From a virus, in IMG/VR virus record IMGVR_UViG_3300009605_004544, positions 32,001 to 96,000 of that record: DNA of 64,000 bases; one strand, given 5' to 3'. Positions 22,700 to 50,100 of the stretch are shown in pieces. Numbering within the stretch: position 1 is the first letter of the stretch; each line of letters starts with the position of its first letter. Below the pieces are notes generated by a model. The model saw only the letters and a program-made list of their open reading frames with translations, was not told the origin of the DNA and searched no databases. The position numbers were made by a program, and so were the translations under genes.

Positions 22700-22701
22700 A
22701 A

Positions 22702-22884: not shown

Positions 22885-22892
22885 GAGACGAG

Positions 22893-23567
22893 ATGAATAA
22901 CCGGTGGATTATGGTGTTCGACTTTGAGACAGACGGGGTAGACCCAAATACTTGCAATCCCGTAGAGCTTGCGGCTATTCCTATCGATCCTCGAACTTTG
23001 GAAATTAAAGAGAAGAAAGCTTTTAGCGCTGTCATTAAGCCACCCGGATTTAATAAAGAAGAGTACTTCACAGACGACCGTCAAAAGACTATAGAATGGC
23101 ATGCGAAACAGAGGGGCGTAACTAGCGCCGACATTATCAAGTCTTGGAAGAAGGGGAAGAGCGAAAAGATAGTCTGGAAAAACTTTTGCGAATACTGCAA
23201 GAAGTTCAATATAGAAAAATCTTATGGAAACTGGTACACAGAGCCGATAGCTGCTGGGTATAACATCATCGGATTTGACTTGCCGATTTGTCAGCGGTTA
23301 GCCGACAAGCATAAGACTGGAATGCCATTTGCTAAAGTGAACAAGATGGATCTCATGGACCTCCTGTTTTATTGGTTTGAAAACCTAGGCGAGCCTAAGA
23401 ATATGAGACTTGATACAATGCGAGATTTTTTCGGAGTCCAAACAGTCCAAGCGCATGAGGCGTATTCTGACACTTTCGATACTGCAAAGCTATTGGTGCA
23501 GTTCCTTAAGTTCCATAGGCGACAGTCTAGCGTAGGCAAGTTCAAGGGAGCAATGGTTCAAAAATGA
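22893..23567 (+). CDS. DEDDh 3'-5' exonuclease (DnaQ/epsilon-like)
   Basis: ExoI FDFETDG, ExoII GYNIIGFD, ExoIII AHEAYSD; AGGAG RBS. Confidence 0.85.
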   Translation: MNNRWIMVFDFETDGVDPNTCNPVELAAIPIDPRTLEIKEKKAFSAVIKPPGFNKEEYFTDDRQKTIEWHAKQRGVTSADIIKSWKKGKSEKIVWKNFCEYCKKFNIEKSYGNWYTEPIAAGYNIIGFDLPICQRLADKHKTGMPFAKVNKMDLMDLLFYWFENLGEPKNMRLDTMRDFFGVQTVQAHEAYSDTFDTAKLLVQFLKFHRRQSSVGKFKGAMVQK

Positions 23568-25207
23568 AGAATGCATTTGCATGTGGATGCACGTTCGACG
23601 TAGTTGACAAGCACGTTGTTTACGATCCCAATATTGAACGCCTGCCTCTCAAATGCTCTGCTACTTGGGATTTAATTTGTGATGGAAATACCAAAGGAGT
23701 TTTCCAATTGGAATCCCAACTGGGGCGAAGTATGGCTGAACGAGTAAAGCCAAAGAATATAGAAGAGCTATCAGACCTCGTAGCTATTATTCGACCGGGA
23801 TGCATGGAGGCAATTGTAGATGGCAAAAGTCTGACACAACACTATATAGATAGAAAGCACGGAATAGACCCCGTCGAATATTTTCATGATGCGCTTGAAC
23901 CGATCTTATCCAGCACCTATGGGATACTCGTCTATCAAGAACAAGCCATCCTTATTGCTAGAGACATCGGGGGTTTCGACCTACAAGAAGCAGACATTTT
24001 GCGCAAAGCCATTGGAAAGAAAAACGTAGGTTTGATGACCGAGCTAAAGAAGCAATTTATTCAAAAGGCAGAGCAAAAAAAGGTTGTCACAAAAGAGCAA
24101 GCTGAAGAAATATTTAGTTGGATTGAAAAATCTCAAAGATACTCATTCAATAAGTCACATTCGGTAAGCTATGCATATAATGCGTATCTGACAGCTTACA
24201 CGAAGACTCACTTCCCAAGGGAGTTCTTCACGTCTTACCTTAAAAATTCAATTGGCAAGCCTGATGCCTACACAGAAATAGAAGAGCTAGTAAATAACGC
24301 TCGCATAATGGACATTGATGTGATGCCCCCGAATATTAAAAAGATGAACAAAAGGTTCACCTTAATAGGCCCCAACCCCACATTCGGCATTACGGAAATT
24401 AAGGGCGTAGGTGGTTCCGTGTTTGATAAGATGGGCGACTGCCTGAGTCGCAATCAGATCAATTTAGAAACATGCGACTGGAATACATTTTTAATAGGAT
24501 TCGGCTCATGTATTAAAGTAGACTCCTTTGAAGCCTTGATACTTAGCGGCGCACTTGATTGCTTTGATATTAGTCGTAGTCAAATGGCTCATGAATTGAA
24601 AATGTTCAGAGAATTAAGTAAGCGAGAAATCGCTTGGATCGAAACGTACAAGTCGTCGAACGTTAAAGCCGATCTAGAGGGATGTATCGCTGAAATGATC
24701 TCTACTAACAACTGGTCAAATCCCAAGAGGCCGATATTCAGAAGGGATCGACTAGAGGTAGTAGAAAGCGTTAGGGGTTCTTTACAGAATCCGGGCTATG
24801 AGCTTGTAGACTTTCCCGGCTGGAAAGCCAGAAAGGAAGAACACTACCTTGGAGTCTCTTTAACTTGCGCCCGAGTAGACGAGTACGATACAAGTGGTGC
24901 TAATTGCACATGCAAAGAATACACGGACGGCTTTAACTCAAGGAACGGTATAAGGATAGCCGCCCAGATTGACGGCGTAAGAGAATGGAAAATTAAAAGA
25001 GGAAATGCCAAAGGAAAAAAGATGGCTTTTGTTACCATCAGCGACGGAACTTGCAGCTTAGATAGCGTAACAGTATTTTCTGATGAGTGGGAAAAATACA
25101 GTAACGAATTGTCGGAAGGGAATGTTTTGTTGCTAGCTGGCATGAGAGACTCTAAAAGAGGAAGTTTTCTAATAAAGTCAGTTTCTAAGGTCAAAAACCT
25201 AGCTTAG
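23564..25207 (+). CDS. dnaE: DNA polymerase III alpha, C-terminal part (fingers, HhH, OB fold)
   Basis: GVFQLES, AIIRPG, TYGILVYQEQ, ADILRKAIGKK, YSFNKSHS, IKGVG, MAFVTISDGT OB fold. Confidence 0.92.
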   Translation: MKNAFACGCTFDVVDKHVVYDPNIERLPLKCSATWDLICDGNTKGVFQLESQLGRSMAERVKPKNIEELSDLVAIIRPGCMEAIVDGKSLTQHYIDRKHGIDPVEYFHDALEPILSSTYGILVYQEQAILIARDIGGFDLQEADILRKAIGKKNVGLMTELKKQFIQKAEQKKVVTKEQAEEIFSWIEKSQRYSFNKSHSVSYAYNAYLTAYTKTHFPREFFTSYLKNSIGKPDAYTEIEELVNNARIMDIDVMPPNIKKMNKRFTLIGPNPTFGITEIKGVGGSVFDKMGDCLSRNQINLETCDWNTFLIGFGSCIKVDSFEALILSGALDCFDISRSQMAHELKMFRELSKREIAWIETYKSSNVKADLEGCIAEMISTNNWSNPKRPIFRRDRLEVVESVRGSLQNPGYELVDFPGWKARKEEHYLGVSLTCARVDEYDTSGANCTCKEYTDGFNSRNGIRIAAQIDGVREWKIKRGNAKGKKMAFVTISDGTCSLDSVTVFSDEWEKYSNELSEGNVLLLAGMRDSKRGSFLIKSVSKVKNLA

Positions 25208-33928: not shown

Positions 33929-34686
33929 ACAAAATCGCAGAAACAGAATTCGAAGAAATGGTGCAGCCCATATCTGCCGAAGAAACTGCCATTGATCACA
34001 TTATTGCCGATGATCTTAAGGGGGCACCAGCAGACTACGAACCGGAATGGTCAGAATATCTATTAGATCAACTATCTGACCATGAACTTATTAATGGGGC
34101 ACCGACTGTAGACGGCCTACGCCGTATTGCTGAAAAATGTTTTGGGGAAATCGTTGATTCTCGTAGCCGGATTGTGGAAACTCCTTGTGCAGACAACGGG
34201 ATGAGATGCACAGTATGCCATACCTTGCGTATTATCAAGTACCGAAACGGTCAACAAGTTCAAGTAGATGGGTGTGTTGATGTAGTTTATCATAAGACGC
34301 CTTATCCATTCAAGGACCACCTAGTCGCTACTGCCGACACAAGAGCCGAGGGAAAGGCTCTTAGGAGAGCCTTAAAGATCAGAGTAATAACCGCAGAAGA
34401 GCTTCAGCATGAGGATGAAGAGGAAGCTCTGTCTTCTGATGAGGCGGTTAATGATCAGCAAATTCTTGCCATTAACCAGCTTTGTAAGAGACTAAACATG
34501 TCTGTTGTTGCTATTGCCAAGGACCAATACAATACGATAAAAAGCATTAACGACTTAAGGAATTTGGAGGCGAGATTACTGATCAGCAAGCTGTCAGAGC
34601 TACAAAGAAATCCCGATGATGTGCCAGAATCGTACATCGGTTATGATGAAAATTGGAAAAGTGATTTTTATGGGAGTAAAAAATGA
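33925..34686 (+). CDS. Rad52/Sak-like single-strand annealing protein
   Basis: DGLRRIA..FG, ATADTRAEGKALRRAL, C-terminal QQI.AI..L...EARLLISKL. Confidence 0.5.
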   Translation: MNKIAETEFEEMVQPISAEETAIDHIIADDLKGAPADYEPEWSEYLLDQLSDHELINGAPTVDGLRRIAEKCFGEIVDSRSRIVETPCADNGMRCTVCHTLRIIKYRNGQQVQVDGCVDVVYHKTPYPFKDHLVATADTRAEGKALRRALKIRVITAEELQHEDEEEALSSDEAVNDQQILAINQLCKRLNMSVVAIAKDQYNTIKSINDLRNLEARLLISKLSELQRNPDDVPESYIGYDENWKSDFYGSKK

Positions 34687-35072
34687 AAGCCAGAATCAAA
34701 GCAACCGACAGCCTCTGGTTTGATGTAGAGGCGGAACAAGAAGATGAAGTTTTTAAGCAAATCGCGAGAGTGCAGGAAATATTTCAGCATAAGGGATGTG
34801 GTCATTGCGAATCACCAAACGTCAAGTTTGTCTGCCGGTTTGATAGCTCGGGTAATGACTGGTTAGAAATTACTTGTCAAGAATGCCGTGCTAAGCTCAT
34901 CTTTGGGCGTACAAAAAAGGGAGGTCTGGTCTTTCCTAAAATTAGATGGGATCAGCTTTCTGAAAAACAACAGGAGCAGCGTATTAATGAAAAGTCGCAT
35001 GCTGATAAAAATAGAGGGTATCTTCCCGATAGAGGGTGGTTTATTTACAAGCCAATCGTAAGAAATAATTAG
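34683..35072 (+). CDS. Zn-ribbon hypothetical protein
   Basis: CGHC...CQEC. Confidence 0.6.
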   Translation: MKARIKATDSLWFDVEAEQEDEVFKQIARVQEIFQHKGCGHCESPNVKFVCRFDSSGNDWLEITCQECRAKLIFGRTKKGGLVFPKIRWDQLSEKQQEQRINEKSHADKNRGYLPDRGWFIYKPIVRNN

Positions 35073-35083
35073 GAGGAATTGCC

Positions 35084-35269
35084 ATGCCTACGAGTAATGA
35101 TGAAGCTAAAAGGATTTGCGACATTATTAACGACTTCTTAAGCGACGAAGAAGCCGTCGCTATAACTCGAAGACTAGATGAAGAAGTGGGGGTGCATACC
35201 GACAATGACTCCTTAAAGGTAAGTCTTAGAATGCTCAGGAATCTATACGAGCGAGGAGAGAGCGAATGA
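35084..35269 (+). CDS. Small helical protein, paralogue of the N-terminus of 19829..20395
   Basis: AGGAGG RBS; 17/50 gapless identities with the 19829 gene. Confidence 0.7.
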   Translation: MPTSNDEAKRICDIINDFLSDEEAVAITRRLDEEVGVHTDNDSLKVSLRMLRNLYERGESE

Positions 35270-35820
35270 GGCTGGACCACATAGCTTACCGAGTAGGCAA
35301 TCGGCATAAGACCGCAAAACTTTTTAAGCGAATGTTTGGCTATGAAATTGGAATCGAATTTTGTATCGATTTTGATGATGGCTCCAAAGCCGAATGTATC
35401 GCAATGACTCCTATCGAAAAAGATAATCCCATATCAAAATTCATTGGCATCCCTTGGGTGACCAAATCGTATGGAATATCGAAGCCCGTAGAACATCACC
35501 TTGCTCCCGAAATTTTTATTAGTGATGGCGCACCCGGATCTATTGTAGGAGATTGGGTGAAATTACATAACGGAGGAGGCATTCATCATATGGCATATAT
35601 GACGAGCCATATACACGACGAGGTCTCAAAATGGAAGAAGCTGGGGATAGAGTTTTTATCAAACGACATAATTGACTGCCCGGAAGATGACCTGCGACAA
35701 ATTTTCACTAAGCCACTACCTGAATTGGGCGGTATTATTGTCGAACTAATCGAAAGAGGGGATAAGGGGTTTTGTCAAAACTCAGTTAAGCACTTAATGA
35801 ACAGCACCAAGGGGTTGTAA
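35266..35820 (+). CDS. VOC-superfamily metalloenzyme (HPPD C-domain/HglS-like)
   Basis: LDHIAYR (His), GGIHHMAY (His), QIFTKP..VELIERG..GF (Glu): 2-His-1-Glu triad. Confidence 0.75.
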   Translation: MRLDHIAYRVGNRHKTAKLFKRMFGYEIGIEFCIDFDDGSKAECIAMTPIEKDNPISKFIGIPWVTKSYGISKPVEHHLAPEIFISDGAPGSIVGDWVKLHNGGGIHHMAYMTSHIHDEVSKWKKLGIEFLSNDIIDCPEDDLRQIFTKPLPELGGIIVELIERGDKGFCQNSVKHLMNSTKGL

Positions 35821-35822
35821 AA

Positions 35823-37322
35823 ATGTGGAAAGCTCAAAACTATATCAATGGTAATTTTGTAAGTAGCGGGTCAGACTCATTCTTTGATAATGTAGATCCT
35901 TGCACGGGAGCTTCTCTCGGCCAGTTTTTCAATTCAAGAGTAGAGGAAGTTGAAGAAGCTTATACCGCTGCCAGAAATGCATTCTCTGAATGGCGAGCTA
36001 CAAGCCGCGTTCAACGCGCCGAATATTTATACAAGGTCGCCAAGCTTATAGAAGAAAGGCGGGAAGAATTAGCATACGTAATATCTGTAGAAACAGGTAA
36101 GAACTACAATGAGTCCATTGCTGAAGTAAACGAGGCCTTACATATGGCTCAGTATGCTTTTGGCTCTGGAAGAACCCCACAAGGAGAAGCCGTTGCGTCC
36201 GAAATTTCTGAAAAAGACGCCTATGTTCTACGAAAGCCCAAGGGTGTTGTTGCCGTCGTTAGCCCTTGGAATTTTCCTCTTGCCATTGGTGCTTTTTGGT
36301 GCGTTGCTCCTGCAATCGTGGAAGGCAATACGGTCATTCTAAAACCAAGTGAGGACGCCCCTTATACCTCCCAAATGGCAATGGAACTGTATCATGAGGC
36401 TGGCATTCCCCCCGGAGTGATTAACCTTGTACACGGAGATGGGCTTATAGGAGACTGCTTAGTTAGAAAAGATGTCGACCACATTTGCTTTACTGGCAGC
36501 GCAGAGGTTGGGCAGCACATTCGAAAAATATGTGCAGATAGCTGGCATAAAACGTGCTCCTGTGAACTTGGAAGCAAGTCTGCTGTCGTAGTTTTTGAGG
36601 ACGCTAATTTTGATCTAGCTGTATACTCCTCAGTAGCTAGCGCATTCAAGCTTTCTGGGCAAAGATGCGTGTCCTCTGGTAGAATAATCGTACAGCGAAC
36701 AATCTACGATAAGTTCTGCGAGGCTTTCGTAGAAAGGGCCTCCACTGTCAAAGCAGGCGCGCCTTTCGTGGACAACGGGTACGTGGTTGGTGGAAAGGTC
36801 AAGCCAAGTTCCGCATACATGGGGCCTTTGATCAATGCTCAGCAACTAGAAACCGTTACAAGATTTAATGATATGGTGGCTGATGATCAAGATGCCGAGG
36901 TGCTACTTGAGCCTTCATATCAATCTCCCGGCTACTACGTCAGCCCCCTTGTATATAAAACCGAGTGGAGAAATGTCCCGTACTTAAAGAGCGAGGTGTT
37001 TGGACCCCATGTTGCACTCATACCCTTTGACACAATTGATGATGCTGTTAGGATCTATAATGATACTGACTATGGCTTGGCTGTTGGCGTGGTTACTGAA
37101 GATTTCAAAAAAGCTAGAATTTGTCGTGATAGGTGTGATTATGGGATGTGCTATTGGAATGGTGGCTCTATCGCTGCTGAGTCTCATGTACCCTTCGGAG
37201 GAGTTAAGAAGTCAGGAAACGGATATCCATCAGCATCCCGAACCTTCCGTGCCGTTACTCACGAAGTAACATGGACAATTAATCATGACGACAATCTAGC
37301 CTTTCCACAAGGAATGGAATAA
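35823..37322 (+). CDS. NAD-dependent aldehyde dehydrogenase
   Basis: SPWNFP, LKPSE, FTGS, ELGSK (Glu), GQRC (Cys), EVFGP, PFGGVKKSG. Confidence 0.95.
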   Translation: MWKAQNYINGNFVSSGSDSFFDNVDPCTGASLGQFFNSRVEEVEEAYTAARNAFSEWRATSRVQRAEYLYKVAKLIEERREELAYVISVETGKNYNESIAEVNEALHMAQYAFGSGRTPQGEAVASEISEKDAYVLRKPKGVVAVVSPWNFPLAIGAFWCVAPAIVEGNTVILKPSEDAPYTSQMAMELYHEAGIPPGVINLVHGDGLIGDCLVRKDVDHICFTGSAEVGQHIRKICADSWHKTCSCELGSKSAVVVFEDANFDLAVYSSVASAFKLSGQRCVSSGRIIVQRTIYDKFCEAFVERASTVKAGAPFVDNGYVVGGKVKPSSAYMGPLINAQQLETVTRFNDMVADDQDAEVLLEPSYQSPGYYVSPLVYKTEWRNVPYLKSEVFGPHVALIPFDTIDDAVRIYNDTDYGLAVGVVTEDFKKARICRDRCDYGMCYWNGGSIAAESHVPFGGVKKSGNGYPSASRTFRAVTHEVTWTINHDDNLAFPQGME

Positions 37323-37588
37323 TGTTCTCAAACGCGTTCGAGATTTTTCTAAACATGCTGGCCTATTCGTTTTGGCCCTTTGCATTTTCCTTGATAGCGA
37401 TCTACGTCTTCAATACGTACCTCAACGACTCTTATAAGAGAAAAGTTAAAAAGGAAAAGAGGGTACGCTCTACGGACCCGGAAGTTCACGATCTGGCAGA
37501 AAAGGCGCTGAACTTCAAGGCTCCCAAGATAGAGACCTCTTTTGGGGATGAGAGAATAGGTGAAGTCCATGCGAGTGAAAAGGATTAG
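37322..37588 (+). CDS. Small single-pass membrane protein
   Basis: Hydrophobic N-terminal ~33 aa followed by basic KRKVKKEKR. Confidence 0.6.
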   Translation: MFSNAFEIFLNMLAYSFWPFAFSLIAIYVFNTYLNDSYKRKVKKEKRVRSTDPEVHDLAEKALNFKAPKIETSFGDERIGEVHASEKD

Positions 37589-37632
37589 AGAGTTAACAGG
37601 ACTCCAACTAGAATAACAAGAGGTAATTGAAA

Positions 37633-38682
37633 ATGACAGATGCTGCCCCCCTTCCTTCAGTCAATGCTCGCGCTATAGGTGTGGACATTGGAACCGGATT
37701 TATATCTTGTGCAGAAAAAGAAGCAGGAGACGTAAAGTTCCGAAAGATTAGAGACGCTTTTTTCAAACTCAACCCCTCCAAGTTCCTTGAGGGTTCAGCG
37801 AGTCAGTTCGGTGAAAGTATGCTAAAAAATTCTGGTGCTCATTATGTTAAGGTTGATGGCATCCTACATGTTCTAGGTGACGACGCCTTCAAGTTCGCAA
37901 ATCTATTCCATCAAGAATGCCTTAGACCTATGTCAAAGGGTGTTCTGAACCCCAAGCAGCCGGTCTCAAATCTCATGGTGGGAGAGCTTGTCAAGGCTAT
38001 AGCTGGAAAGCCTACGGCAGATAGCGACGTTCTATACTACTGCGTTCCCGCTGAGCCAATTGATGCGGACTTTGACGTGGAGTACCATAAACAGATATTA
38101 GGGGGCGTTTTTGACGATCTAGGCTATAAAAATGTTAACGTAATGACGGAGGGGCTGGCTGTCGTATACTCAGAGTTAGCTGACACGCAGTACAGCGGCA
38201 TTGGAATGAGCTTCGGAGCCGGTATGTGCAACATTGTCTACTCCTTTATGGGTATTCCTGTCTTTGCCTTCAGCTTGAGCCGGGGTGGAGACTGGATCGA
38301 CAGTCATGCGGCTCAGCACACGGACGAGACCCATAACGTGGTGACTGCTGTCAAAGAAAAGGCCGACTTTAGCCTTTACGATTCTACAAATGGGATTCAA
38401 CGGGCAGTTTCTATCTACTATGAATCTTTACTAAATTATGTTGTTGAACAATTCAAGGAATTGTATGAAAGAACCCCTAAGAAGAAATTGCCAAATGTTA
38501 CTGCGGAAATGCCGATTGTAGTAGCGGGAGGGACTTCTCTAGTTGCAGGATTCGTGGAAAGACTTAAGGAGTTAATAGTAGACGATTTCCCAGTCCCTAT
38601 CTCTGAAGTAAGGCACGCAGAGCAACCTCTTTTCGCTGTTTCCAATGGCCTTTATCGGGCAGCCAAGCTCTCCCTCTCTTGA
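37633..38682 (+). CDS. Actin-like ATPase, volactin-like family
   Basis: Phosphate-1 GVDIGT, connect-1 EGLAV, phosphate-2 variant GMSFGAG, GGDWID, adenosine VAGGTS; family strings GDDAFKFANLF, RPMSKGVL, PAEPID..YH; GAGG RBS before ATG 37633. Confidence 0.85.
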   Translation: MTDAAPLPSVNARAIGVDIGTGFISCAEKEAGDVKFRKIRDAFFKLNPSKFLEGSASQFGESMLKNSGAHYVKVDGILHVLGDDAFKFANLFHQECLRPMSKGVLNPKQPVSNLMVGELVKAIAGKPTADSDVLYYCVPAEPIDADFDVEYHKQILGGVFDDLGYKNVNVMTEGLAVVYSELADTQYSGIGMSFGAGMCNIVYSFMGIPVFAFSLSRGGDWIDSHAAQHTDETHNVVTAVKEKADFSLYDSTNGIQRAVSIYYESLLNYVVEQFKELYERTPKKKLPNVTAEMPIVVAGGTSLVAGFVERLKELIVDDFPVPISEVRHAEQPLFAVSNGLYRAAKLSLS

Positions 38683-38693
38683 AGGATATTAAT

Positions 38694-39662
38694 ATGGAAA
38701 TGACAGAAACTATTAACCGTATATTTGATAAGCGCAAAGGTCTCTTAGCTGCTGACGAGAGCACCCCCACCATACAAAAAAGATTTGACTCTGTGGGAAT
38801 GTCTTCTACGCCAGAAACGAGACATGACTATCGACACAATCTTTTTTCCACAGAGGGGCTGGAACGCTATATCGGGGGCGTCATCTTATATGATGAAACG
38901 ATCAGGAACAAAGAGACCATAGCGCCATTGCTGGACAAGGGAATTACTTTAGGTATCAAGGTAGACGGGGGAGCCAAGCCCTACAATAAAACAGGGGGCA
39001 AGCTAACGGAGGGACTTGATGGACTTACAGAAAGGCTTCGAGAATATAAAGACTTGGGGGCCGAATTCGCTAAGTGGCGTGCCGTTATTGACGTTAATGA
39101 TGCCGATACTTGCTTACTGGCTAATGCTTGGACTCTGGCTAGATATGCTAGAAAGTGTCAAGAAGAAAAGATAGTCCCTATAGTGGAGCCAGAAGTATTG
39201 ATGGATGGAGTACAAACAATCTGGAAGTCTTTTGATGTAACGGAAAAGATACTCCACATTCTATTTGACGCCCTATATTGGGAAAGAGTTGATTTGGAAC
39301 AGATCATTCTCAAGCCCAATATGATCGTCTCTGGATACAAGAGCACCATTCGGGAGAGATCAGAAGGTGTGAGCGCCGCCACTTTAAATTGCTTTCAAAG
39401 AACCGTGCCCTCTGCGGTTCCAGCAATTGCTTTCTTAAGTGGTGGGCAAAAGGATGAAGAAGCAATTAATAATCTAGCCGAAATGAACAAGCAGTCCTAT
39501 TTGCCTTGGGTGGCCTCATTTTCCTTTGGTCGAACAATGCAGAGCGGTGCTTTAGAATTGTGGGCAGCTAATAAAAAGTCAGATGCTAGACATTGGACAT
39601 TTGAAAGGGCTAAGGATTGTTCTCAAGCAGTGTCTGGGAAATCAGTGAGTTGGGAGAAATGA
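38694..39662 (+). CDS. fba: Fructose-bisphosphate aldolase class I
   Basis: GLLAADES, GIKVD, FAKWR, PIVEPEV, LKPNM (Schiff-base Lys), FLSGGQ, SFSFGR. Confidence 0.95.
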   Translation: MEMTETINRIFDKRKGLLAADESTPTIQKRFDSVGMSSTPETRHDYRHNLFSTEGLERYIGGVILYDETIRNKETIAPLLDKGITLGIKVDGGAKPYNKTGGKLTEGLDGLTERLREYKDLGAEFAKWRAVIDVNDADTCLLANAWTLARYARKCQEEKIVPIVEPEVLMDGVQTIWKSFDVTEKILHILFDALYWERVDLEQIILKPNMIVSGYKSTIRERSEGVSAATLNCFQRTVPSAVPAIAFLSGGQKDEEAINNLAEMNKQSYLPWVASFSFGRTMQSGALELWAANKKSDARHWTFERAKDCSQAVSGKSVSWEK

Positions 39663-39826
39663 GAATGGGTCTTTGGGCACTACTGATGTCGAGCGTTCTT
39701 TATGCTGTTGTATCTGTCGATCTAGCTATTAAAAATAAGTACGCCCTATCTATTATTTTTTTGTGCTATACCATAGCAAACTTAGGGTACGTCTGGCTAG
39801 CTTATTACGATAAGGAGGGGTCATGA
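39659..39826 (+). CDS. Small two-TM membrane protein
   Basis: 55 aa, hydrophobic; ATGA overlaps on both sides. Confidence 0.6.
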   Translation: MRMGLWALLMSSVLYAVVSVDLAIKNKYALSIIFLCYTIANLGYVWLAYYDKEGS

Positions 39827-40872
39827 TAAATAATCGAACTGCTATTGTTGGCGCAGGGAATATGGGGAAAGCGATAGCTTGGGCCATGGAAAGCTTGGAT
39901 CATGATGTTGTGGTGCTAGATCAAGATGAAAAGGCAATATTTGATTGTCAAAAAATATTAAAACCTTCTCGACATAAGTTCATTCGAGGCACATCGTATC
40001 AGATGTTAAAAGAGTGCTCGATGGTAATCTCGTCACTACCCTACCATCAGAACCTGAAATTAGCAACTTTCTGCATTGACAATGGAATAAAATATCTTGA
40101 CCTAGGTGGCTGCGTTAAAGTCAGCGAAAAAATTAACGAATACGCCAATCACAAAGCAGAGTGCCCTGTAATGACAGATCTGGGCCTTGCACCGGGCTGG
40201 GTTAATATCGTGGCTGAAAATCTGTACCGAGAATACGTAGAAAGCAAGGGTGAAATTCCCAACTCAATCACGATGATGGCAGGAGGACTTCCTCAGAGAC
40301 CTACTAATACTTTAAAATATGGCTGCACATGGTCATATGCTGGCTTAATAAACGAATACAGAGATAATTGTATCGTTTTGATAAACGGCCTTCAAGACGT
40401 GCAAAGAGGGATGGGCGGATTTGAAGAACCTGTACAAACCGAAATCGGTGAGTTAGAAGCGTTCTATACTAGCGGGGGAGCAGCCCATACAATTGCCACG
40501 ATGCAAAGACGAAAAGTTCCCAATTGCTGCTATAAAACATTAAGATATCCGGGCCATCATAGAATTGTTAACTTTCTAATCCACGAATCTGGGTTGGACG
40601 ACGAAGCTCTGACGAAAGTCTTTCAAAGAACGTGCCCTCCTCGGGACGACTTAGTAATTATGCGTGTCGCAGTAGACGATCTATTGTTTGAAAGGGTCAT
40701 CAGGTCTGACCAAAAATTCTCTGCCATGCAAAAGGCTACGGCGTTTCCTATTGCCGCAGCGGCCCATACGGCAGCCTCTTATGACTTCTCGCAGCCTGTT
40801 TTAAAATATGACGACCTTGGAGTCACACCATTTAATACATGGCTAGATGTTCTGTTCTTACATACGTATTAG
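39823..40872 (+). CDS. Saccharopine dehydrogenase family / lysine 6-dehydrogenase-like
   Basis: GAGNMG Rossmann, YLDLGG, DLGLAPG, GGLPQRP, WS..GLINEY, LEAFYTSGG, YKTLRYPGH. Confidence 0.88.
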   Translation: MINNRTAIVGAGNMGKAIAWAMESLDHDVVVLDQDEKAIFDCQKILKPSRHKFIRGTSYQMLKECSMVISSLPYHQNLKLATFCIDNGIKYLDLGGCVKVSEKINEYANHKAECPVMTDLGLAPGWVNIVAENLYREYVESKGEIPNSITMMAGGLPQRPTNTLKYGCTWSYAGLINEYRDNCIVLINGLQDVQRGMGGFEEPVQTEIGELEAFYTSGGAAHTIATMQRRKVPNCCYKTLRYPGHHRIVNFLIHESGLDDEALTKVFQRTCPPRDDLVIMRVAVDDLLFERVIRSDQKFSAMQKATAFPIAAAAHTAASYDFSQPVLKYDDLGVTPFNTWLDVLFLHTY

Positions 40873-41096
40873 ACGGGCCATTTGGGGTCGTTTGGAGAGC
40901 ACCTGCCGGTCAAATTAAGCAAAAACTTTTTAAGCTCTATAATTTGCGCCGCCCTCTTTAGGATATGCCTCCTTTTCATCTCGTCCCCTCCCATCGCTGT
41001 ACACTCATGATCCTTTCTTTTAATTACTTCAATAGCATGTTGATGTTTTCGAATCAAATATTCGGCTTTCTTGTCTTCTCTAATTGGGCCATTCAT
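40869..41096 (-). CDS. Hypothetical protein
   Basis: 75 aa; overlaps upstream stop (ATGA) and converges on the + strand gene with a 4-nt overlap. Confidence 0.5.
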   Translation of the reverse strand: MNGPIREDKKAEYLIRKHQHAIEVIKRKDHECTAMGGDEMKRRHILKRAAQIIELKKFLLNLTGRCSPNDPKWPV

Positions 41097-42013
41097 GTCG
41101 TCCTCTCATAAACGTATCTGGCTGTAGCTATATCTTCAATTGCTAATCCGGTAGCGTCAAACAGCGTGCCCATGGTGCGATCAATATTATTGTACTCTAA
41201 AGGTCCACTGACTATTTCCCCCAAAGAAAATAAAGCTGGCCTGCGAATACACTCTGATAAGTATTGAATTTCTCCTGAATGAGAGCATTGCTCCCACTCG
41301 TCATAAACGATGAGTCCCATATGGTTAATTACAGAAGCATCTAGCTCTCTTTTCCCCTTGGCGTCTGCGCCAACGGCATTGATAAGAACTGATTCTTTTA
41401 ACCACTCCTGCTTAATAAAGCCCTTCCGAGAAGGGGTAAGGGTGGTTACGATATCGGCATCCCTTAAGCATTCTGCTAGGCTGTCGAAGACTCTTGCGTT
41501 GTCAAACTCTTCGGCCATCCTGTGCGCTCGGTCTGAATCTAAGTCATATAAAAATATCTCATGTATATCTCTAACGGCGGTAACGGCCTCGATTTGTCTT
41601 TTTGTTTGATTCCCGCACCCAATAAAAGCCGCTGTTTGCGAATCAAGTCTAGACAAGTATTTGGTGGCGACTCCCGTTACAGCCGCTGTTCTAATGGCAG
41701 TTAACGTTTCTCCATCCATGATGCATAAAAGCTTGCCCGTCTTAATGTCGTTAATTAAAACTTTGGCAAAAATATTGACTTTTCGCTTCGTGCCTGTATC
41801 ATCGAGATGGACACCGCACCATTTTATTCCCGCCGTATCGTATGCTATAGCGGGCATCGCTCGAAAGTCTCCGTTAGGAATGTTTAGATAAGTTTTTGGA
41901 GGCATCTGAGTATGGTCTAGGTTTTTGAACAGCCTTTCTATAATATTAATACATTCAGGGACAGTAATTAACTTTCCAACTTCGTCATTACTCAAAATAG
42001 GAACATTTTGCAT
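41093..42013 (-). CDS. Ornithine cyclodeaminase/mu-crystallin family (archaeal-type alanine dehydrogenase-like)
   Basis: MPPKTYL..GDFRAMP..AGIKW, TAIRTAA, IGCGNQ, AVGAD..GKREL, FDATGLAIED; GAGGTG RBS before ATG 42013. Confidence 0.9.
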   Translation of the reverse strand: MQNVPILSNDEVGKLITVPECINIIERLFKNLDHTQMPPKTYLNIPNGDFRAMPAIAYDTAGIKWCGVHLDDTGTKRKVNIFAKVLINDIKTGKLLCIMDGETLTAIRTAAVTGVATKYLSRLDSQTAAFIGCGNQTKRQIEAVTAVRDIHEIFLYDLDSDRAHRMAEEFDNARVFDSLAECLRDADIVTTLTPSRKGFIKQEWLKESVLINAVGADAKGKRELDASVINHMGLIVYDEWEQCSHSGEIQYLSECIRRPALFSLGEIVSGPLEYNNIDRTMGTLFDATGLAIEDIATARYVYERTT

Positions 42014-42024
42014 TTGACAGCACC

Positions 42025-42714
42025 TCAACCTAATCTGTCTAGAATTTTAGCAATAATATCATTCCTAATAATATCTCGTCCTTCTAATTTACAGATAGAT
42101 ATGCCCTCTATCTCTCCTAACTTTTCCATGCAGGTTTCGAGTCCTCCTTTCATGTAGTCATTAAGGTCTGTTTGATCAGGGTCTCCATTTAATACCGCTT
42201 TAGAGTTTTTCCCAATCCTCGTAACAAACATTTTTATTTGTTCAAGCGTGGCATTTTGGGCTTCGTCTAAAATCATAAACGTGTTGTGGAAATTCCTTCC
42301 ACGCATATATTCCAGCGGACACAGTTCTATTATGTTGTTAAAACGAAGGCTATCTAGCATGTCTCGTGAGATATATTTACCCATTTCTTCCAACACAGGA
42401 ACAAGATAGGGTTGAATCTTATCTGTGTAAGTTCCCGGTAAATGTCCAAGTCCTCCCCCCGTTTCTACTGTAGGGCGAGCTATGACGATCTTGCCCACCG
42501 TGTTTTCCTGAAGAAGCTGGCATCCAAGGCCAACCGCAACAGCAGTTTTACCAGAACCGGCAGGGCCAGTGCAGAATACGACATCGGATTTTATCATGGC
42601 CTTAAGATAATTCGATTGATTTTCAGTTTTCGGGATTACTTTTCTTTGTGGATACCCTCCGTCAGAATGAGTTTTCGGGAGGTCACTGTTATTTTTCTTT
42701 TTCTTTCTGGGCAA
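42025..42714 (-). CDS. phoH: PhoH-family ATPase
   Basis: GPAGSGKT, ARP, LGHLPG, YMRGRNF, ILDEAQN, GDPDQTD. Confidence 0.95.
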   Translation of the reverse strand: MPRKKKKNNSDLPKTHSDGGYPQRKVIPKTENQSNYLKAMIKSDVVFCTGPAGSGKTAVAVGLGCQLLQENTVGKIVIARPTVETGGGLGHLPGTYTDKIQPYLVPVLEEMGKYISRDMLDSLRFNNIIELCPLEYMRGRNFHNTFMILDEAQNATLEQIKMFVTRIGKNSKAVLNGDPDQTDLNDYMKGGLETCMEKLGEIEGISICKLEGRDIIRNDIIAKILDRLG

Positions 42715-43199: not shown

Positions 43200-44114
43200 C
43201 TAGGGAGAACAGGCACCTTCTGTAATCAGGCCAGACCACTGCATCACTACTGGGTGAATGGGGGGTGTCATCGAAGGATCAGGGTCGAGCATTCCTGTCT
43301 GACAGTCACAGTTGATAAGGAACTCCCCCTCCACCAAGAGCATAAACTTTTGTCCTTCGGTGCCCTTGCATTGGCCGCTTACCAGATCAGCACAGTTGTT
43401 GATACTTAATGTGCCTTCCGTGGTCTGCGGCCACTCTTCGGTGCCAGTGTAATAAGCACAAGGAGAGCAGGGAACCGAGCAGGGTTCTATTTCAAACCAG
43501 AAGCAGTGTGAGGAGCATGGAAGAGGTCCAGCCCCCGTTACAATGCCGTCTCCCTCTGTGGCGCATGGGCCGTTCGGGTGGAGTTGCGGGCATGGATGAT
43601 CGAAGCCGAGAGGAAGACCAGTAACTTGAATTCCCGTCTTGCAACAACATAGGCTGGCGGTAATGCACATGCCATCACAGTCAGACCCTGACATAGGAGG
43701 TGAGCTAGTAGTGCAGTCGCCACAGACAGTCCCTGAGAAACCCCACGCTTCTATATAAGCTCCCGTTGGCTGGTCTTGGTATTCGGCAAGGCACACGGTG
43801 CAGAGCGCCCCGCCGGGATTCAAGTCGCCGTCACTGTGGTAGTAACACATGGATGGCGATTTGGCGAACGTAAATGAGAAGTCGTCGCACATGCATGGCG
43901 ATCCACCGCCGCCACCGCCGCCACCACCTTGGATGCGACAATTAATCATCTCAAAGCAAAGAGGTCCAGTTGGAACGCAAGCGCAGCAATTACAATAACA
44001 CGAGTCAATATTGGCCCCGATGGGAACCCCCGGAGTTCCTGCGGGCGGTGCTGTGCAACATGAACAGCAAGTGTTTCCGTATCTTGGCCCTATGCCTATA
44101 TGCGTAACGCTCAT
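43200..44114 (-). CDS. Cysteine-rich virion-associated protein (putative tail tip/fibre partner)
   Basis: About 35 Cys in 304 aa, poly-Gly linker; TAATG-coupled to the upstream 2433-aa gene. Confidence 0.65.
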   Translation of the reverse strand: MSVTHIGIGPRYGNTCCSCCTAPPAGTPGVPIGANIDSCYCNCCACVPTGPLCFEMINCRIQGGGGGGGGGSPCMCDDFSFTFAKSPSMCYYHSDGDLNPGGALCTVCLAEYQDQPTGAYIEAWGFSGTVCGDCTTSSPPMSGSDCDGMCITASLCCCKTGIQVTGLPLGFDHPCPQLHPNGPCATEGDGIVTGAGPLPCSSHCFWFEIEPCSVPCSPCAYYTGTEEWPQTTEGTLSINNCADLVSGQCKGTEGQKFMLLVEGEFLINCDCQTGMLDPDPSMTPPIHPVVMQWSGLITEGACSP

Positions 44115-47100
44115 TAACTTACCCCTTGTAATAGTCCATTACAAAAAGTGAGAGTTGCGGCGAATACAGCCATAGAGTCTCCGCTACAAGCAATACCTGT
44201 AATTACCGGCAAATCCCCCTTGTACCCGATTGTGCCCATCTTCATTTTTGTATACTTGCCATCGTCACATGACTCTTGAAATGTTCCTTGAAGAGTTGTG
44301 CAGCCACCAATCGCGTCGAATGTAATCTCTTTAATATAGTCCCCTATGCCCCCGACTGTCAAATTCTTGGCTATGAGGGTCTTACATTCGCTAGCTGTTG
44401 AGTAAGAAGCAATTTTTTCCAAGCCCACACCAAGCTCAAGCATTTGGGTGTGCAAAGCACCCCCATTCGCCCCGTCAGGTATTTTGCAATTATCTGAATC
44501 TTCCGTAAATTGATGCACGTTAGGAGCAAGGAAAATAGTAGAAACATTGTCACCTTCCGCAACCCTAACATCAAGACCTTTATAACCCGACACTTCACAC
44601 GCGACTTGATGATCCGCTTGAGCATAATCGGCGCATAGATAAGCATCATGATCAGTCCACTGCGGTCCTGCTGTTAGAGCAAAGTCCAATCGATCTGCCG
44701 CTGGCGTATGTGACTGACCCATATAGCCGAAGCCTGTGCCAAACACTACGCTACGGGCGCGGGAAACAATTGAGGCAGTTACTGCGTCTACGCATCCCGT
44801 TACTCTGTAGTCAAAACCGTTCCAAGAGATGAGTGCTTCACAGTCGCCTTCATCTTCCATTGTAAGGCCCGTTCCGATACCGATGCATTCGAAAGGCCCG
44901 TCATGGCACACATCGTTCCTGATCCCCTGACTAGGAGAAGCTACACTACCGCTTCTTGTTCTAAACTTTTGAACCAGATTAACTGTAGCTGCGCATTGAC
45001 CTTCTGTTCCGGGGGCGTCTAACTCTACCTGAAGACCGCTTCCAAATATCAAAGTCTGGAATGGCGTAGAAGGCATTCCGTCTCTGTCACATACAGACAT
45101 TCCACTAACATCCGGCCCTGTAATTTCAAAAGCACAGGGGAAGTCTGGAACTACTTTTGCATTCAGTCCTGTAGAGATAATTATATTGCGGAAGAAAGTT
45201 TCGTTGAATTTTGTGGTTGGCTTGTTCTCGCAACCCTTATTAGAAATATATTGAACAGCATGCAGAATCGGAGCACACTCAGGGCCAGCTTTCTCGATAC
45301 CGCTCCCGAACACAAGAGTGTCGAATGGAGTTGGCCCGTAGTCTCTGGCTCTATTTGCCTCTTCATCTGCCTCGCAGGTTCCAAGGCCAGAATATCTTGG
45401 GCCGGTAATCTTAAATGCACAGCCCGATTGACTCACAAACAGCCCAGTAGACATATCAAGAGTATTAAAGAACCTATGTTCGTCATCCGAAAGAGGGGAA
45501 AACCCTGCCGCATCGGAGGCTGGGGTTCCACAAGGGGTTGTTCTAATCCACTGTGGTGCATCGACTTGGAAATCACATGTGCTGAAATTGAACACGCCAG
45601 TGAGGCCGCTGCCAAAAGTAATCTGGTCTGGTACGACCGGTCCAAAATCATTTCCGCTACAGGGGGCAACCAATTTAACGCTGGGGCCAGACACGGTGTT
45701 TGTTATAGGATCGACCGTCAGGCCGCTTCCAAATACCAGACAGTCTACTGGCTTACATTCGAATTCAGACTTGCACCCCGTCGCTCCTATTTTAATTCCG
45801 CTTGAGTGAAGCGTATATGCGCCGCAGTTATGCCCTGAAATCCCTTCTTCTACGTAGAAGCCGCTTCCAAACTTCAAGCACTCAAATAAGCCGCCTATCT
45901 CCTGACCCCCAGCGGTGGTCCCCGTGACACAATGGGTTGTATTAAGCCATACAGAACATCCCCCTGTGGGGAATCCGTTGGGGTCTGGTGGTTGCTCCAC
46001 AGGGCTTATATCTCTGTTGAGAGTAAGCCCGGTGCCCACAAGTAACGTGCCGAAAGGCTGATTGAGCCACTCGTCGTCAACATATGAGTTGTCACAAAGA
46101 ATGTCGCTGATCAGCGGTCCAGCAACTACGTTCGTGCCAGTATCCCATGTCAATCCGGTCCCAATAATCAGGCAACTGGTACTAGCGCAGGGCAACCACC
46201 CGGTGCCACAACCAGTAGTCCCGACTTTCATCGTTCCTTCTACTGATATTGCAACACCCGACCAGCCATCCTCCTGTACTCCCGAAACGGCAATACCGTC
46301 TCCGAATTCTATAAATTCTACGCCATACTTTGTCATCTCGTCGGGGAGTTCCGGATCACAACCTTTTTTAAGCTCGCGATCACTACAACCAATTGCTATC
46401 TTGCTGGAAACTAAAACACCTGTTTTGTCTTGTGTATTAACTCCAGAAACAATAAGGTTTCTTCCAAACTCAATGAATTCCGCGCGGTCTTTAGTAAAAT
46501 CGAGGTCAGCGACTTCAGGAAATATGTCACAGCAGTACGTCGGAGCATCATACAGCGAATCGCACGCCGTCCTCTGACTGCAAGCTACGGCTACTCCCCC
46601 ACTGTTGCCGCTAGTGTTAACGGAAATTAAAAGACCTGACCCTCCTTCACCTGCAAGGCCCTTGACGTTAAGTCCCTTCCCAAAATTAAGATACTTCGCT
46701 TTTGGAATCGAAAAATCAGGCGTATCGTTAAATTGGCCACATCCGGTAGCCTCCCTCTCGCTACAGGCTACGGCTATGCCTTGGCCGCTCTGCGACCCCA
46801 CGGAAACTAAAACGCCTGACTTTTTACCATGCTCAATCCCAGAAACATCTATGCCATTCCCAAATTCAAGAAATTCCCAAGCAGGATCAAACTTGGGTGA
46901 TTGGCTAAACTGGTCACATCCGCTAGCCTCCCTCTCACTACAGGCAATTCCAATGCCGGGACTGCCACTATCCATTGAAATTAACAGCCCGGAACTCCCC
47001 CCCCTCCCCCCTGTGAAATCTTGAATGCCAGAAATTTGCAGACCTTTCCCGAATTCAAAAAATTCAATGACAGGATCCCACGTCGGCTTCTCTTCCCATT

Positions 47101-50100
47101 TTTTACCACCCTCAACTTCATCCGACCCACAGCCACTAGCTTCCCTGTTGCTACAGGCAATACCAAAACCGGGAATCACGCTAACACCAATACCAGACTC
47201 CCTCCCCGTCTCTCCCGAAAACGGGCCGCCGTCGCACATTGAATCAAGCCCCGTTACAGCAAATCCCTTGCCAAAGTCAATAAAGTACGCCGGGAAGAAA
47301 GGCACGACCGATGCCCCGGCTGCCCCCGCGCCCTCGTCGAGAGCGGGGTCGCATCCAGTTCCGTAGTCAACGCCGTGACACGATATTGGGATGATGTCAC
47401 GCTGCTCCACCGAAACCAATAATCCTTTACGGCCCTTGCCGGATTCCTCTGGAGTGCCTGCAAGGCATGTTGGAGCGAGCGGGTCGTTTTCCCAGACACC
47501 AGATACCTGAACGCCCCTACCCCACTCGATAAATTCCCAATCGTTTAAGTCGGGACAGTCGCTTTCTCCAGATTTACCAACATAACCCCCGTACTCTATC
47601 GCGTCACGGATGCAATCGTGCTGCTCGCCAACGTTGCTAATGGATTCGCATGCACACCAGTCAATACTACCACACGGATCGTGAATCGCCGTTCCCGGCA
47701 CGCCAGTTGATGTGTACTGTCGCGGCACGGCCCTATCACTGCAAGCCGCTGAGAGACCACCCCCTTCTCCACCACCAAGCAACCAATACTCACAAGCTGC
47801 TGTGTCATAATAGGCAACGCCCTTAACGATGCTCTTATCTGTAGGATTGAAAACTTGAATTGTAGGTGACGAAATAACGTTGCCTTCTTTATCATATATA
47901 TCCTCGGCGCCCTTAAGAACATTGGCCGTTCCGTATCCCCCCGCACCAATGCCAGTAGCGGATTCTACCTGATACATCCTAAACGCCGGGGGAATAGTCC
48001 AAACCCCTCTGGCCCTGTCAAATCTTAAGTCTACGGGAGCGGCGGGCCAGTCACGAGCGTCTGACAACCAGTCCTCTTTGAATTTATCAGTTAAATTCTC
48101 GTAGTTATCTTGCCAAGTTCCTGCGCTATCCCCTACAGAGTTAGGAACTGGCTTGCCATAGATATCGTATCCCCATCCATGTATAACTAGCGGCCCTCTA
48201 AGGGCAAAATGACGATAGTCCGCTGCGTAGTTTGCATTTCCTGAAATATGAATAAGTAGAGAGTCAGTTCCACCGATCTGATTATCCAACAGCCAAGACA
48301 TTGATTCTCTAGCGACCGCTTCAACATCATGGCCGCTGGTGCTCTCATTCCCCCGGAAACCGTCAAGGAGAGTAGTGTTGGAAACCGGGTCTGCCAGATA
48401 GTCTAAATATTTTTGAACGACAGGCAATCCAGTGTACCCATCCACGGGAGGGGGAGGCGCAGATGTCTGAAAAGTAGGGCAGTTTCCGCTATTTGATGCA
48501 ATCTTAGGGAGGCCCGCATCTCCGTAATTAGATACTGGTCTAATAATGGCATCCATACTTACATAGGATGTGCTGTCATACTCTGAATAGTATGGCATCG
48601 TATGCTTGTCTGGAATTATGACAATTTTTCTTTTAGGATCAGAGGTAAGCTTGCCTGCAAACCATATGCCGGGGCTTCTAGGGGCTAGTGCCCCCTTACC
48701 TATGTCATCAGTAGCAATACGAGAAAGTTTTGTATCTCCCCCTCTTGATTCCGCTACTTTTAACAGCTTGCTGAGTGCTGAACTTGCACGAAGGTCTCGC
48801 TCACCTTTAAGCTTATTTAAACCGATCTGCTTGACACGTTCCGCATTTCCCTTAGAGAATCTGCCAAAAACAGGAGTAAAAGTGCTAATGGTATAGGAGG
48901 TTGTCACCCCTCCGGGGCCTACCGTGACGTTGATACTTGACACGCTTGCACCACCAGTCTGCTGCCCAACAGACCATGACACAAAGTTATACATGGCTGG
49001 ACCGTTAGGATAAGAGTGTGAGCCAACCCCAAGAGATCTGCCATCATATCTAGTATTAGGTGAATTAGCCAATAGTGCAGATCCCAATGACAGCGTGGGA
49101 TAGCCCGGTATGGTAACTTCTCCCCTCTCACCAAATTGCATAGCCGTGATCGCATTAGCGACCTTGGCAGTCCCTGCGGCATTCATAAACTCGCTGCCAC
49201 CATATTCCCAAGGAGCTAAGCCGTCGTCTACTTCACAGTGCACAGAGCCGGGATTTGCTCCTACAGCATACCATGGACCATAAGTTCTAGTATTACTTTT
49301 GACAGGCACTCCCGCTTGGTATGGATAGGCAACGGCAGCCCCAACGGCCCCCACCGTTTCACCCTGAGCACCAAGTTTATTTTTAGTAACTACTGGCGTA
49401 ACTCCAGCAGCGCCCTGTGGCTTAGCATCCATTAGCTTAGAGTTGGACTCTATCGCTGGAATACTCTCCCCGTCTAGCACGGGAGTTCCTATTTTTAATA
49501 GCGCCGCGAGCTTGTCATCATCGGGCACTCCTATGACCGGGGTTCCTTCAACCCATTTTTGCTCAACACTGGCTTTTACCCAAACCTCAGTACCCAGAAC
49601 AAGATAATCATCTTGATTCAGTGCTTTAAGATTTAAATCTGCTCCAGTATATTTTAGTATTGGCTGGATTTTGCCCGATTCGTCTTTAAAGAAATCTGCT
49701 GCAATACTGGGATTATCTATCCCTAAAATGTCTGTGTCATCGTTAGGTGTTGCCCACCCCCCGTCTGTCGATGGTTCGTCACTATAAACGGTCTTTTTAG
49801 TATCTGTGTCTGTGTTAGAACATACATGAGGGCACAGTACTAAAAATTGCTTACCCCAAAAGTCTTGCACATATGATTGGAACCAACTAAAAAATGTTTT
49901 CCCATCTATAACCTTTGGGTTGGTTGGGGTGCCGTCATTTCCCCCTCCCTCTCTTCCAACCAAGCCGTCTATGGCAACGCGATCATCCATAGCGCCGGGG
50001 TCTCTGTTTCTAACATCATTTAGCTTGATTTCCAGAGTATCCCTATAATATCTCTGTATAACCGTATCAACCCCTCCGACCTTCTCCATCGTTAAAATTT

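Follow-up and report, generated by a model that had tools for sequence, protein, structure and literature searches.

To our knowledge, very few phages have been described as encoding a cytoskeleton of their own, the main examples being the tubulin PhuZ of nucleus-forming jumbo phages and the actin AlpC of a Corynebacterium prophage. Bacterial actins are coupled to their cargo or to the membrane by proteins such as ParR, AlpA, MamJ and RodZ; MreB reaches the membrane through RodZ or through a membrane-binding helix of its own, and MamK does so through MamJ. The prophage actin AlpC moves phage DNA together with AlpA (PMC4446434, PMC5539076). In the archaeon Haloferax volcanii, volactin forms dynamic filaments in vivo that contact the membrane by their tips and has a role in cell-shape transition, and its dynamics have been called ParM-like (PMC10869688). 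Here we describe a gene for a volactin-family actin, and the gene for a small membrane protein directly 5' of it, in IMG/VR virus record IMGVR_UViG_3300009605_004544, of which positions 32,001 to 96,000 were analysed (64,000 nucleotides, hereafter the window, whose own numbering is used throughout).

AlpC, PhuZ and volactin were already known. The searchable literature yielded no paper on phage volactin homologues, nor any on a phage actin of this family that has a dedicated membrane partner and is widespread in marine viromes. Volactin has so far been studied in one haloarchaeon only, and here the family is carried by an abundant group of uncultured marine tailed phages. The locus supplies a specific candidate partner with a five-residue invariant motif. 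Because both genes are short and could be expressed in a laboratory bacterium, polymerisation of the viral actin, its tethering to the membrane and its effect on the cell are open to direct study.

Family placement and fold of the phage actin

The actin gene lies at 37633..38682 on the plus strand and encodes 349 aa, corresponding to the core domain only. Translation probably begins at ATG 37633, which is preceded at 9 nt by an AGAGG Shine-Dalgarno sequence; TTG 37627 is an alternative start that would give 351 aa. The protein matched the Pfam family PF25216 (Volactin) over its full length (E 5e-74; 250.1 bits against a gathering cut-off of 35; profile positions 2-321 of 321), and BLASTP aligned it with a Halobacteriota volactin orthologue at 37% identity over 336 columns (E 4e-77). 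A first-pass annotation of this DNA had recognised an actin of the volactin type from a series of short strings. All of these strings proved collinear with the Halobacteriota orthologue, and those common to both proteins are GDDA.FAN.F, RPM..G.L, PA.PID, EG..V.YSELAD, G.SFGAGM.N, RGGDWID, SIYYE.LL.YV and PL..V.

That annotation had also set the protein apart from MreB, FtsA, ParM and DnaK, and the family searches agree. The Pfam MreB_Mbl model reached 33 bits over the C-terminal 82 residues only (265-346), and the NCBIfam MreB model PRK13927 scored 22.2 bits against a cut-off of 293. FtsA and DnaK/Hsp70 were not among the Pfam matches, and ParM/StbA gave no Pfam match at E <= 0.01. The thresholds for salactin (Pfam, 19.4 bits against 27.1; NCBIfam equivalog, 22.7 against 400) and for MamK (NCBIfam, 28.6 bits against 400) were likewise missed, the eukaryotic Actin model of Pfam scored 15.5 bits, below its cut-off of 27, and phmmer returned at most 14.6 bits against six salactins. 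The sole PHROG match was a weak one to phrog_691, 'partition protein' (E 4e-6, 27 bits), and a sequence search of the PDB gave no match at E <= 1.

To place the actin within its family, we built a tree of 149 sequences, comprising the window protein, proteins from the viral loci, cluster representatives, archaeal volactins, six salactins and Escherichia coli MreB. The tree was computed quickly under LG+G4, and its only MreB outgroup is one long-branched sequence, taken from E. coli because no MreB was found in 201 sampled Halobacteriota genomes. A volactin family of 143 rows was split from salactin and MreB with an SH-aLRT support of 99. The window actin fell in an all-viral clade of 11 rows (support 99) within a group of 17 rows (98). 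This phage group adjoins the 35-row clade of all cellular archaeal volactins (97), and both lie inside a 62-row group (94). As the phage group neighbours the archaeal clade and is not nested in it, the protein is a member of the volactin family but not an orthologue of HVO_2015. Profile searches and phylogeny, the checks that the first-pass annotation had proposed, both placed it in the volactin family and apart from salactin and MreB, and at the level of sequence the identification of a phage-encoded actin homologue of this family is confirmed, well above anything that chance would give.

AlphaFold2 predicted the actin core with a mean predicted local distance difference test score (pLDDT) of 95 and a predicted template modelling score (pTM) of 0.92 from a 99-sequence alignment. 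When the model was compared with known structures by Foldseek and VIA-align, the best match was the MamK filament (Z 28.6; root-mean-square deviation 2.9 A over 295 residues; 23% identity), followed by the BeeR filament (Z 27.8), MreB/Mbl (Z 26-26.7), F-actin (Z ~26) and FtsA (Z 25). Nearly all of the top 50 matches were filament-forming actins and actin-related proteins, so that the protein groups by structure with polymerising actins and not with non-polymerising ASKHA enzymes. Compared with the predicted structures of catalogued viral proteins, the model came closest to Bacillus phage G gp506, with Hsp70 ATPase domains next; since gp506 reached a TM-score of only 0.59, the actin has no close relative in the curated virus proteomes.

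The nucleotide-binding residues are invariant in the 99-sequence alignment: D18, G20 and T21 of phosphate-1 (DIGTG), G195 and G197 of phosphate-2 (SFGAG), and G299 and G300 of the adenosine motif (AGGTS). The actin is also the best-conserved gene locally. It is 91% identical to its counterpart in the related locus L019, while the membrane partner is 76% identical, and the neighbouring genes for aldehyde dehydrogenase (ALDH), class I aldolase, a saccharopine-dehydrogenase-like protein, a protein of the ornithine cyclodeaminase (OCD) family and PhoH are 78%, 54%, 50%, 60% and 55% identical, respectively. These comparisons show the family of the actin, its fold, its intact ATP-binding motifs and its strong conservation under purifying selection. 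The actin probably polymerises in an ATP-dependent manner.

Most homologues of this actin are longer, at 396-437 aa, with 52-90 in-frame residues preceding the core. The extension occurs in three types. Type A consists of MKKRIRKLxGLQExFxDLE, a proline-rich linker and YGQxxESYHPKxYEVFxMxD, in frame with the core; type B reads MxTPRRxxRMSGYRQ ... FDGKxIxSYHP; and type C carries CDNC ... CPxCxGxG, a zinc-ribbon-like sequence that resembles the DnaJ zinc-finger motif. Type C is found in one sub-lineage (L006-L009, L112, L121, L122, L127, L129 and L132). In three other loci (L001, L002 and L020), a gene for a DnaJ-like protein with a J domain and CXXCXGXG motifs lies immediately 5' of the cassette. 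A lineage whose actin is 51-60% identical to that of the window has no extension. An amphipathic, membrane-binding helix at the start of the extension was considered and rejected, as its hydrophobic moment was reached by 991 of 2000 shuffled sequences. The long isoform of L019 (421 aa), folded from a shallow alignment, gave a mean pLDDT of 48.

Three-frame translation of the window, together with DNA alignment with L019, L001 and L020, uncovered a 15-codon remnant open reading frame (ORF), MRVKRIRELTGLQLE, at 37570..37617 on the plus strand. The remnant matches the first of the conserved blocks in the extension and is parted from the core by a stop codon and a deletion of ~140 nt relative to L019; the window core starts at a conserved internal Met. 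In relatives, the partner and actin genes overlap. The database holds a few short homologues of 349-353 aa. Because the core is intact, we read the window copy as a natural short variant, with an assembly artefact as a possible alternative.

With the actin as query, HMMER was run exhaustively against 1.84 billion representatives and returned 970 clusters at E <= 1e-3, of which 299 reached E <= 1e-30. Other family members score 207-379 bits on the Volactin model, which brackets the 250 bits of the window protein. Judged by these matches, the family has more members than published work would lead one to expect and extends well beyond haloarchaea. A pattern scan of GTDB genomes matched archaeal metagenome-assembled genomes only, at 37-40% identity, and one cluster near the archaeal clade comes from the metagenome-assembled genome of a Minisyncoccales bacterium of the candidate phyla radiation (CPR). 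Two published huge phages, L061 (LR745208, 485 kb) and L062 (LR756511, 595 kb), encode volactin-family actins that are 31-34% identical to that of the window and fall in different clades of the tree. Some family members are fused to a response-regulator receiver domain, to Zn_ribbon_4 or to a weakly ParB-HTH-like N-terminus, and one protein is a tandem double actin (the representatives behind the fusions, the double actin and the CPR member are P0244, P0233, P0150/P0163, P0125 and P0134). Inteins of ~330 aa with LAGLIDADG or HNH endonuclease domains interrupt many family genes at the phosphate-2 loop (query residue ~194). They occur in P0123, P0151, P0157 and about 14 further representatives of ~700 aa; P0123, at 51% identity, is among the clusters closest to the phage actin.

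The membrane partner and the two-gene pairing

The ORF directly 5' of the actin gene (37322..37588, plus strand) encodes a small bitopic membrane protein of 88 aa, which its hydropathy, alignment and synteny lead us to propose as an adaptor or anchor of the actin. An N-terminal transmembrane helix (~residues 8-31) leads into a basic stretch next to the membrane (KRKVKKEKRVR), and the acidic tail beyond it has the conserved motif PKIETSFGDERIGEV at its end. The Kyte-Doolittle profile contains one hydrophobic segment (peak 1.72, residues 12-30), after which the next 18 residues carry a net charge of +6 and the tail one of -5, in keeping with the single-pass protein with a basic tail noted at first pass. 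Because the basic stretch follows the helix, the positive-inside rule predicts an N-out/C-in topology with the tail and its motif in the cytoplasm. The protein has no Pfam, PHROG or NCBIfam family match. Its start overlaps the stop of the ALDH gene (TAATG).

Across 16 viral orthologues of the partner, with overall identities of only 20-76%, residues S73, F74, R78, I79 and G80 are invariant. All 24 IMG/VR loci contain an ORF of 86-108 aa directly 5' of the actin, usually overlapping the actin gene, and every one of the encoded proteins has an N-terminal hydrophobic helix, a Lys/Arg-rich stretch and the C-terminal motif PKIETSFGD.RIG.V. Lineages whose actin is 51-60% identical also keep the partner, where the motif reads VTSSFDGKRIGQI or VESSFNNKRIGKI. 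The motif resembles part of the second conserved block of the actin extension (STFDGKxIxSYH compared with TSFGDxRIGxVH), but hhalign gave an E of 0.48, which is not significant.

We surveyed synteny in 104 viral and metagenomic loci, a set of close relatives that includes 16 duplicates. Of the 102 loci with at least 420 nt of upstream sequence, 101 had a small motif-bearing ORF directly 5' of the actin; the loci were retrieved by peptide patterns from the window actin and are mostly 79-91% identical, so these are not independent events. The loci fall into at least six flanking contexts, through which only the pair of actin and partner persists. Genes 5' of the pair encode ALDH, a DnaJ-like protein or unknowns, and those 3' of the actin encode aldolase, a saccharopine-dehydrogenase-like protein, GDP-mannose 4,6-dehydratase, DUF1501 or a cytidylyltransferase.

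In the window the actin gene is one of four tightly packed ORFs in the same direction (37322-37588, 37627/37633-38682, 38679-39662 and 39617-39826), all found where the first-pass annotation had placed them. That annotation took the four to be a module and proposed a synteny survey to examine it. The membrane partner stood up to the survey; the aldolase, which adjoins the actin gene in no more than 6 of 79 loci, did not. The annotation had itself named neighbours that are not conserved in related phages as grounds for refuting the module, and on these grounds the idea of the aldolase as a partner falls. The real conserved module is thus two genes, not four. Partner and actin very probably form a functional pair.

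A comparable arrangement occurs in archaea. A multi-pass membrane protein of 234-307 aa with the domain DUF7139 is encoded directly 5' of cellular volactin in 23 of the 29 archaeal loci (set L025-L053), as in L028 (7231-7986), L034 (2561-3484, minus strand) and L040 (748-1497); the other six, all haloarchaeal, have no DUF7139 gene within 1.5 kb of volactin. The volactin paper PMC10869688 names no volactin partner and does not mention DUF7139, which was not found in the searchable literature either. We considered homology between the phage partner and DUF7139, as an FG..RIGKVV-like string occurs in one archaeal sequence, but rejected it at an hhalign probability of 1%. Our main reason for preferring membrane anchoring as the role of the phage partner is that in both settings the volactin gene comes after one for a membrane protein. 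By the same token, DUF7139 next to volactin is a candidate for the tip anchor seen by microscopy in archaea.

Proposed role of the cassette and competing explanations

As the best explanation of the whole, we favour on balance that the two-gene cassette encodes a membrane-anchored actin cytoskeleton that organises infection. The 88-aa partner would span the inner membrane with its short N-terminus outside, and its basic stretch and acidic tail, ending in ..SF(G/D)..RIG.., would lie in the cytoplasm. The actin would bind ATP and polymerise to dynamic filaments in the infected bacterium, and the C-terminal peptide of the partner would recruit these filaments, nucleate them or anchor their tips at the cytoplasmic membrane. 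The filaments could thereby give infection a spatial order: they might position replication or assembly, or else change the shape or division of the host cell. We propose anchoring because ParR, AlpA, MamJ and RodZ provide comparable coupling and because Haloferax volactin filaments have their tips at the membrane. Direct recruitment or anchoring of the actin through the partner peptide is a possibility that we rate a little short of probable. A more general idea, that a widespread group of marine phages uses a minimal two-protein anchored actin in which the SF..RIG peptide nucleates filaments or anchors their tips, and that volactin and DUF7139 follow the same logic, is tentative and in our view rather doubtful. 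If true, it would identify the membrane anchor of archaeal volactin filaments and define a new class of actin-membrane adaptor.

Compared with the described systems, the phage actin is most like volactin VolA (HVO_2015), with which it shares the full-length PF25216 match, the motif order and a membrane-protein gene directly 5'. Unlike VolA, it is encoded by an apparently bacteria-infecting phage and belongs to a clade separate from the cellular archaeal one; its phage-clade relatives carry the N-terminal extension. Archaeal orthologues score 337-462 bits on PF25216 and the phage actin 250, and the archaeal partner DUF7139 is a multi-pass protein of ~250-300 aa whereas the phage partner has 88 aa and a single pass. 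The AlpC/AlpA pair of Corynebacterium prophage CGP3 likewise combines a phage actin fold with a dedicated small adjacent partner and is thought to organise the viral cycle spatially. However, AlpA is a DNA-binding adaptor and the partner described here a membrane protein, and the actins appear to belong to different sequence families, the one PHROG link of the phage actin being the weak 27-bit match to a 'partition protein' family. MamK (Z 28.6) and MreB (Z ~26.5) are the closest solved structures, and both work at the membrane through partners, but the phage actin scores far below their family thresholds and no magnetosome or elongasome genes lie nearby. PhuZ is also a phage cytoskeletal polymer that organises infection. 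It has the tubulin fold and no counterpart of the membrane partner, and no phage-nucleus genes were identified in the window.

Several points weigh against the anchored cytoskeleton. The near-constant pairing comes from closely related, pattern-retrieved loci, as described above. No natural fusion of partner and actin was found among the longer proteins, nor was the motif present in the N-terminal extensions of family representatives. The huge-phage homologues (LR745208 and LR756511) have no hydrophobic protein encoded 5' of the actin. With no detectable homology between the partner and DUF7139, the archaeal parallel is an analogy only. The window copy, which lacks the extension kept by nearly all members of its clade, may be a functionally altered variant. 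Finally, we infer both the polymerisation and the contact between peptide and actin, as well as the topology of the partner and the biological role.

The filaments might instead push or transport phage DNA in the manner of ParM or AlpC, whether to segregate the genome of a plasmid-like prophage or to deliver replicating DNA to a particular site, with the small protein or some other factor as adaptor. The ParM-like dynamics of volactin (PMC10869688) and the action of AlpC with AlpA (PMC4446434, PMC5539076) are precedents, the one PHROG match is to a 'partition protein', and the ParB-HTH-like N-terminus of one family member, although weak (19.7 bits, below the cut-off), and the strongly basic stretch of the partner fit a link to DNA. 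However, the partner conserved with the actin is membrane-embedded and has no recognisable DNA-binding domain, and ParM/StbA was missing from the Pfam matches of the actin. The sequence 5' of the cassette is coding and differs by lineage, with no conserved centromere-like site apparent. Moreover, we saw no integrase or partition context in the window, whose replication, metabolic and tail genes fit a lytic phage. We therefore consider a DNA-moving filament unlikely.

A role in remodelling the host is about equally improbable. Here the tethered actin would reshape the envelope, the cell or its division, by acting like MreB or against MreB or FtsZ, or would scaffold phage enzymes that modify glycans or the envelope, and would not serve to position phage DNA or virions. 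This differs from the anchored cytoskeleton only in its downstream role, as the molecular mechanism, membrane-anchored filaments, is the same, and the membrane-embedded partner suits both. The volactin phenotype is a cell-shape transition (PMC10869688). Genes for GDP-mannose 4,6-dehydratase and a cytidylyltransferase adjoin the cassette in other lineages, and the window has a large glycosyltransferase cluster at ~25.7-33 kb, but such neighbours are not conserved with the cassette and no envelope-synthesis protein is consistently linked to it.

The protein could also be an ATPase that has the actin fold but does not polymerise, such as a chaperone-like or regulatory enzyme working with J-domain proteins, in which case there would be no cytoskeleton. 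The DnaJ-like gene just 5' of the cassette in L001, L002 and L020, the CxxC...CPxCxGxG zinc motif of one extension type and the Hsp70s among the viral structure matches could all be read in this way. Those Hsp70 matches cover the ATPase domain only, with TM-scores of 0.52-0.58, and the actin has no substrate-binding domain. Its best structural matches are filament formers (Z 25-28.6), and its Pfam family is that of a protein that polymerises in vivo (PMC10869688). A conservation of 91%, against 50-78% for its neighbours, is as high as expected for a polymer former. On these grounds we think a non-polymerising role very unlikely.

The first-pass suggestion that the class I aldolase binds the filaments, by analogy with eukaryotic aldolase and F-actin, is hardly credible: its start overlaps the actin stop and the order recurs in the closest sub-clade (11 loci), but synteny and its faster divergence (54-62% identity where the actin keeps 84-91%) tell against it, and it reaches the equivalog threshold of the normal enzyme and sits among metabolic genes (VOC dioxygenase-like, ALDH, saccharopine-dehydrogenase-like, OCD-family and PhoH).

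The metabolic island and the phage that carries it

The aldolase gene (38679..39662, plus strand) is an auxiliary metabolic gene that lies outside the conserved actin module. It encodes a class I fructose-bisphosphate aldolase of 327 aa, complete as the first-pass annotation had stated, with 320 bits on PF00274 and 379 bits on the NCBIfam equivalog FrucBisAld_I against a cut-off of 250. The count of 6 in 79 refers to loci with at least 1.1 kb downstream of the actin; when shorter loci are counted, aldolase follows the actin in 11 of 104, all in the closest sub-clade. In L001, L002 and L020 the actin is followed directly by a saccharopine-dehydrogenase-like gene and PhoH, without aldolase. The fourth ORF (39617..39826, plus strand; 69 aa) encodes a small protein with two transmembrane segments, whose likely true start is the ATG at ~39659. 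It accompanies the aldolase outside the conserved module and has no family match in Pfam or PHROG; its sole homologue seen, in L019, is 58% identical over residues 13-66.

Aldolase, the small protein with two transmembrane segments and the surrounding dehydrogenases form a variable metabolic-gene island in which the cassette is embedded. Around the four ORFs (35266-37322 and 39823-42028) the island contains genes for a protein with the vicinal oxygen chelate (VOC)/glyoxalase fold, an aldehyde dehydrogenase, the saccharopine-dehydrogenase-like protein and, on the minus strand, an OCD/mu-crystallin-family protein, none of which reaches an NCBIfam equivalog threshold. L019 has all of these genes, and L001, L002 and L020 have only the saccharopine-dehydrogenase-like one.

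Judged by its gene content, the window belongs to a tailed bacteriophage with a bacterial-type replisome. Its replication and nucleotide genes encode a class I ribonucleotide reductase, a bacterial-type RecA, DnaB, DnaG (a Toprim primase), a dCMP deaminase and a dNMP kinase, and further genes encode ClpP, PhoH, glycosyltransferases and an ECF-like sigma-70 factor with regions 2 and 4. We assign the window to a phage because of these genes for ribonucleotide reductase, RecA, DnaB, DnaG, ClpP, PhoH and sigma-70, together with a split DnaE, a tape-measure-like ORF and the 24 IMG/VR contigs that carry the same gene pair. Since sigma-70 and RecA, DnaB, DnaG, DnaE and ClpP are of bacterial type, a bacterial host is indicated. 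When 15 kb of the window were compared by megablast with 50,697 phage records, none matched, and no phage record exceeds 35% identity to the DnaE fragment; the phage therefore represents an uncultured lineage, with no cultured relative and no host assignment.

The same actin is encoded by the 24 IMG/VR viral contigs and by no fewer than 139 metagenome stretches, for the most part at 79-91% identity; many of the stretches come from Tara Oceans and other marine samples. A word-indexed protein search with the actin retrieved 2,192 clusters at E <= 1e-5, the best 120 of which are 83-91% identical, and some of these proteins carry the Joint Genome Institute (JGI) label 'actin-like ATPase involved in cell morphogenesis'. 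A scan of the window for promoters and terminators found nothing above chance, and no tRNAs were found.

Several other features of the window were observed. DnaE is split over two ORFs (20837-25207), one with the PHP and NTPase part and the other with the finger, HhH and OB part, and a gene for a DEDD exonuclease of the RNase_T type (22800-23567) lies between the halves; the Pfam scan found no intein domain. A 129-aa protein with CGHC/CQEC cysteine pairs, to which no function was assigned, is encoded at 34683-35072. Its identity among relatives is 81-86%, on par with the actin and unlike its own neighbours. Two giant ORFs lie on the minus strand at 44114-51415 (2433 aa) and 52966-63999 (at least 3659 aa, open at the window end). 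Neither contains a Pfam domain; the larger has a weak match to the tape-measure family phrog_4211 (51 bits), and a homologue of a giant ORF, 44% identical, lies just 3' of the actin cassette in L017.

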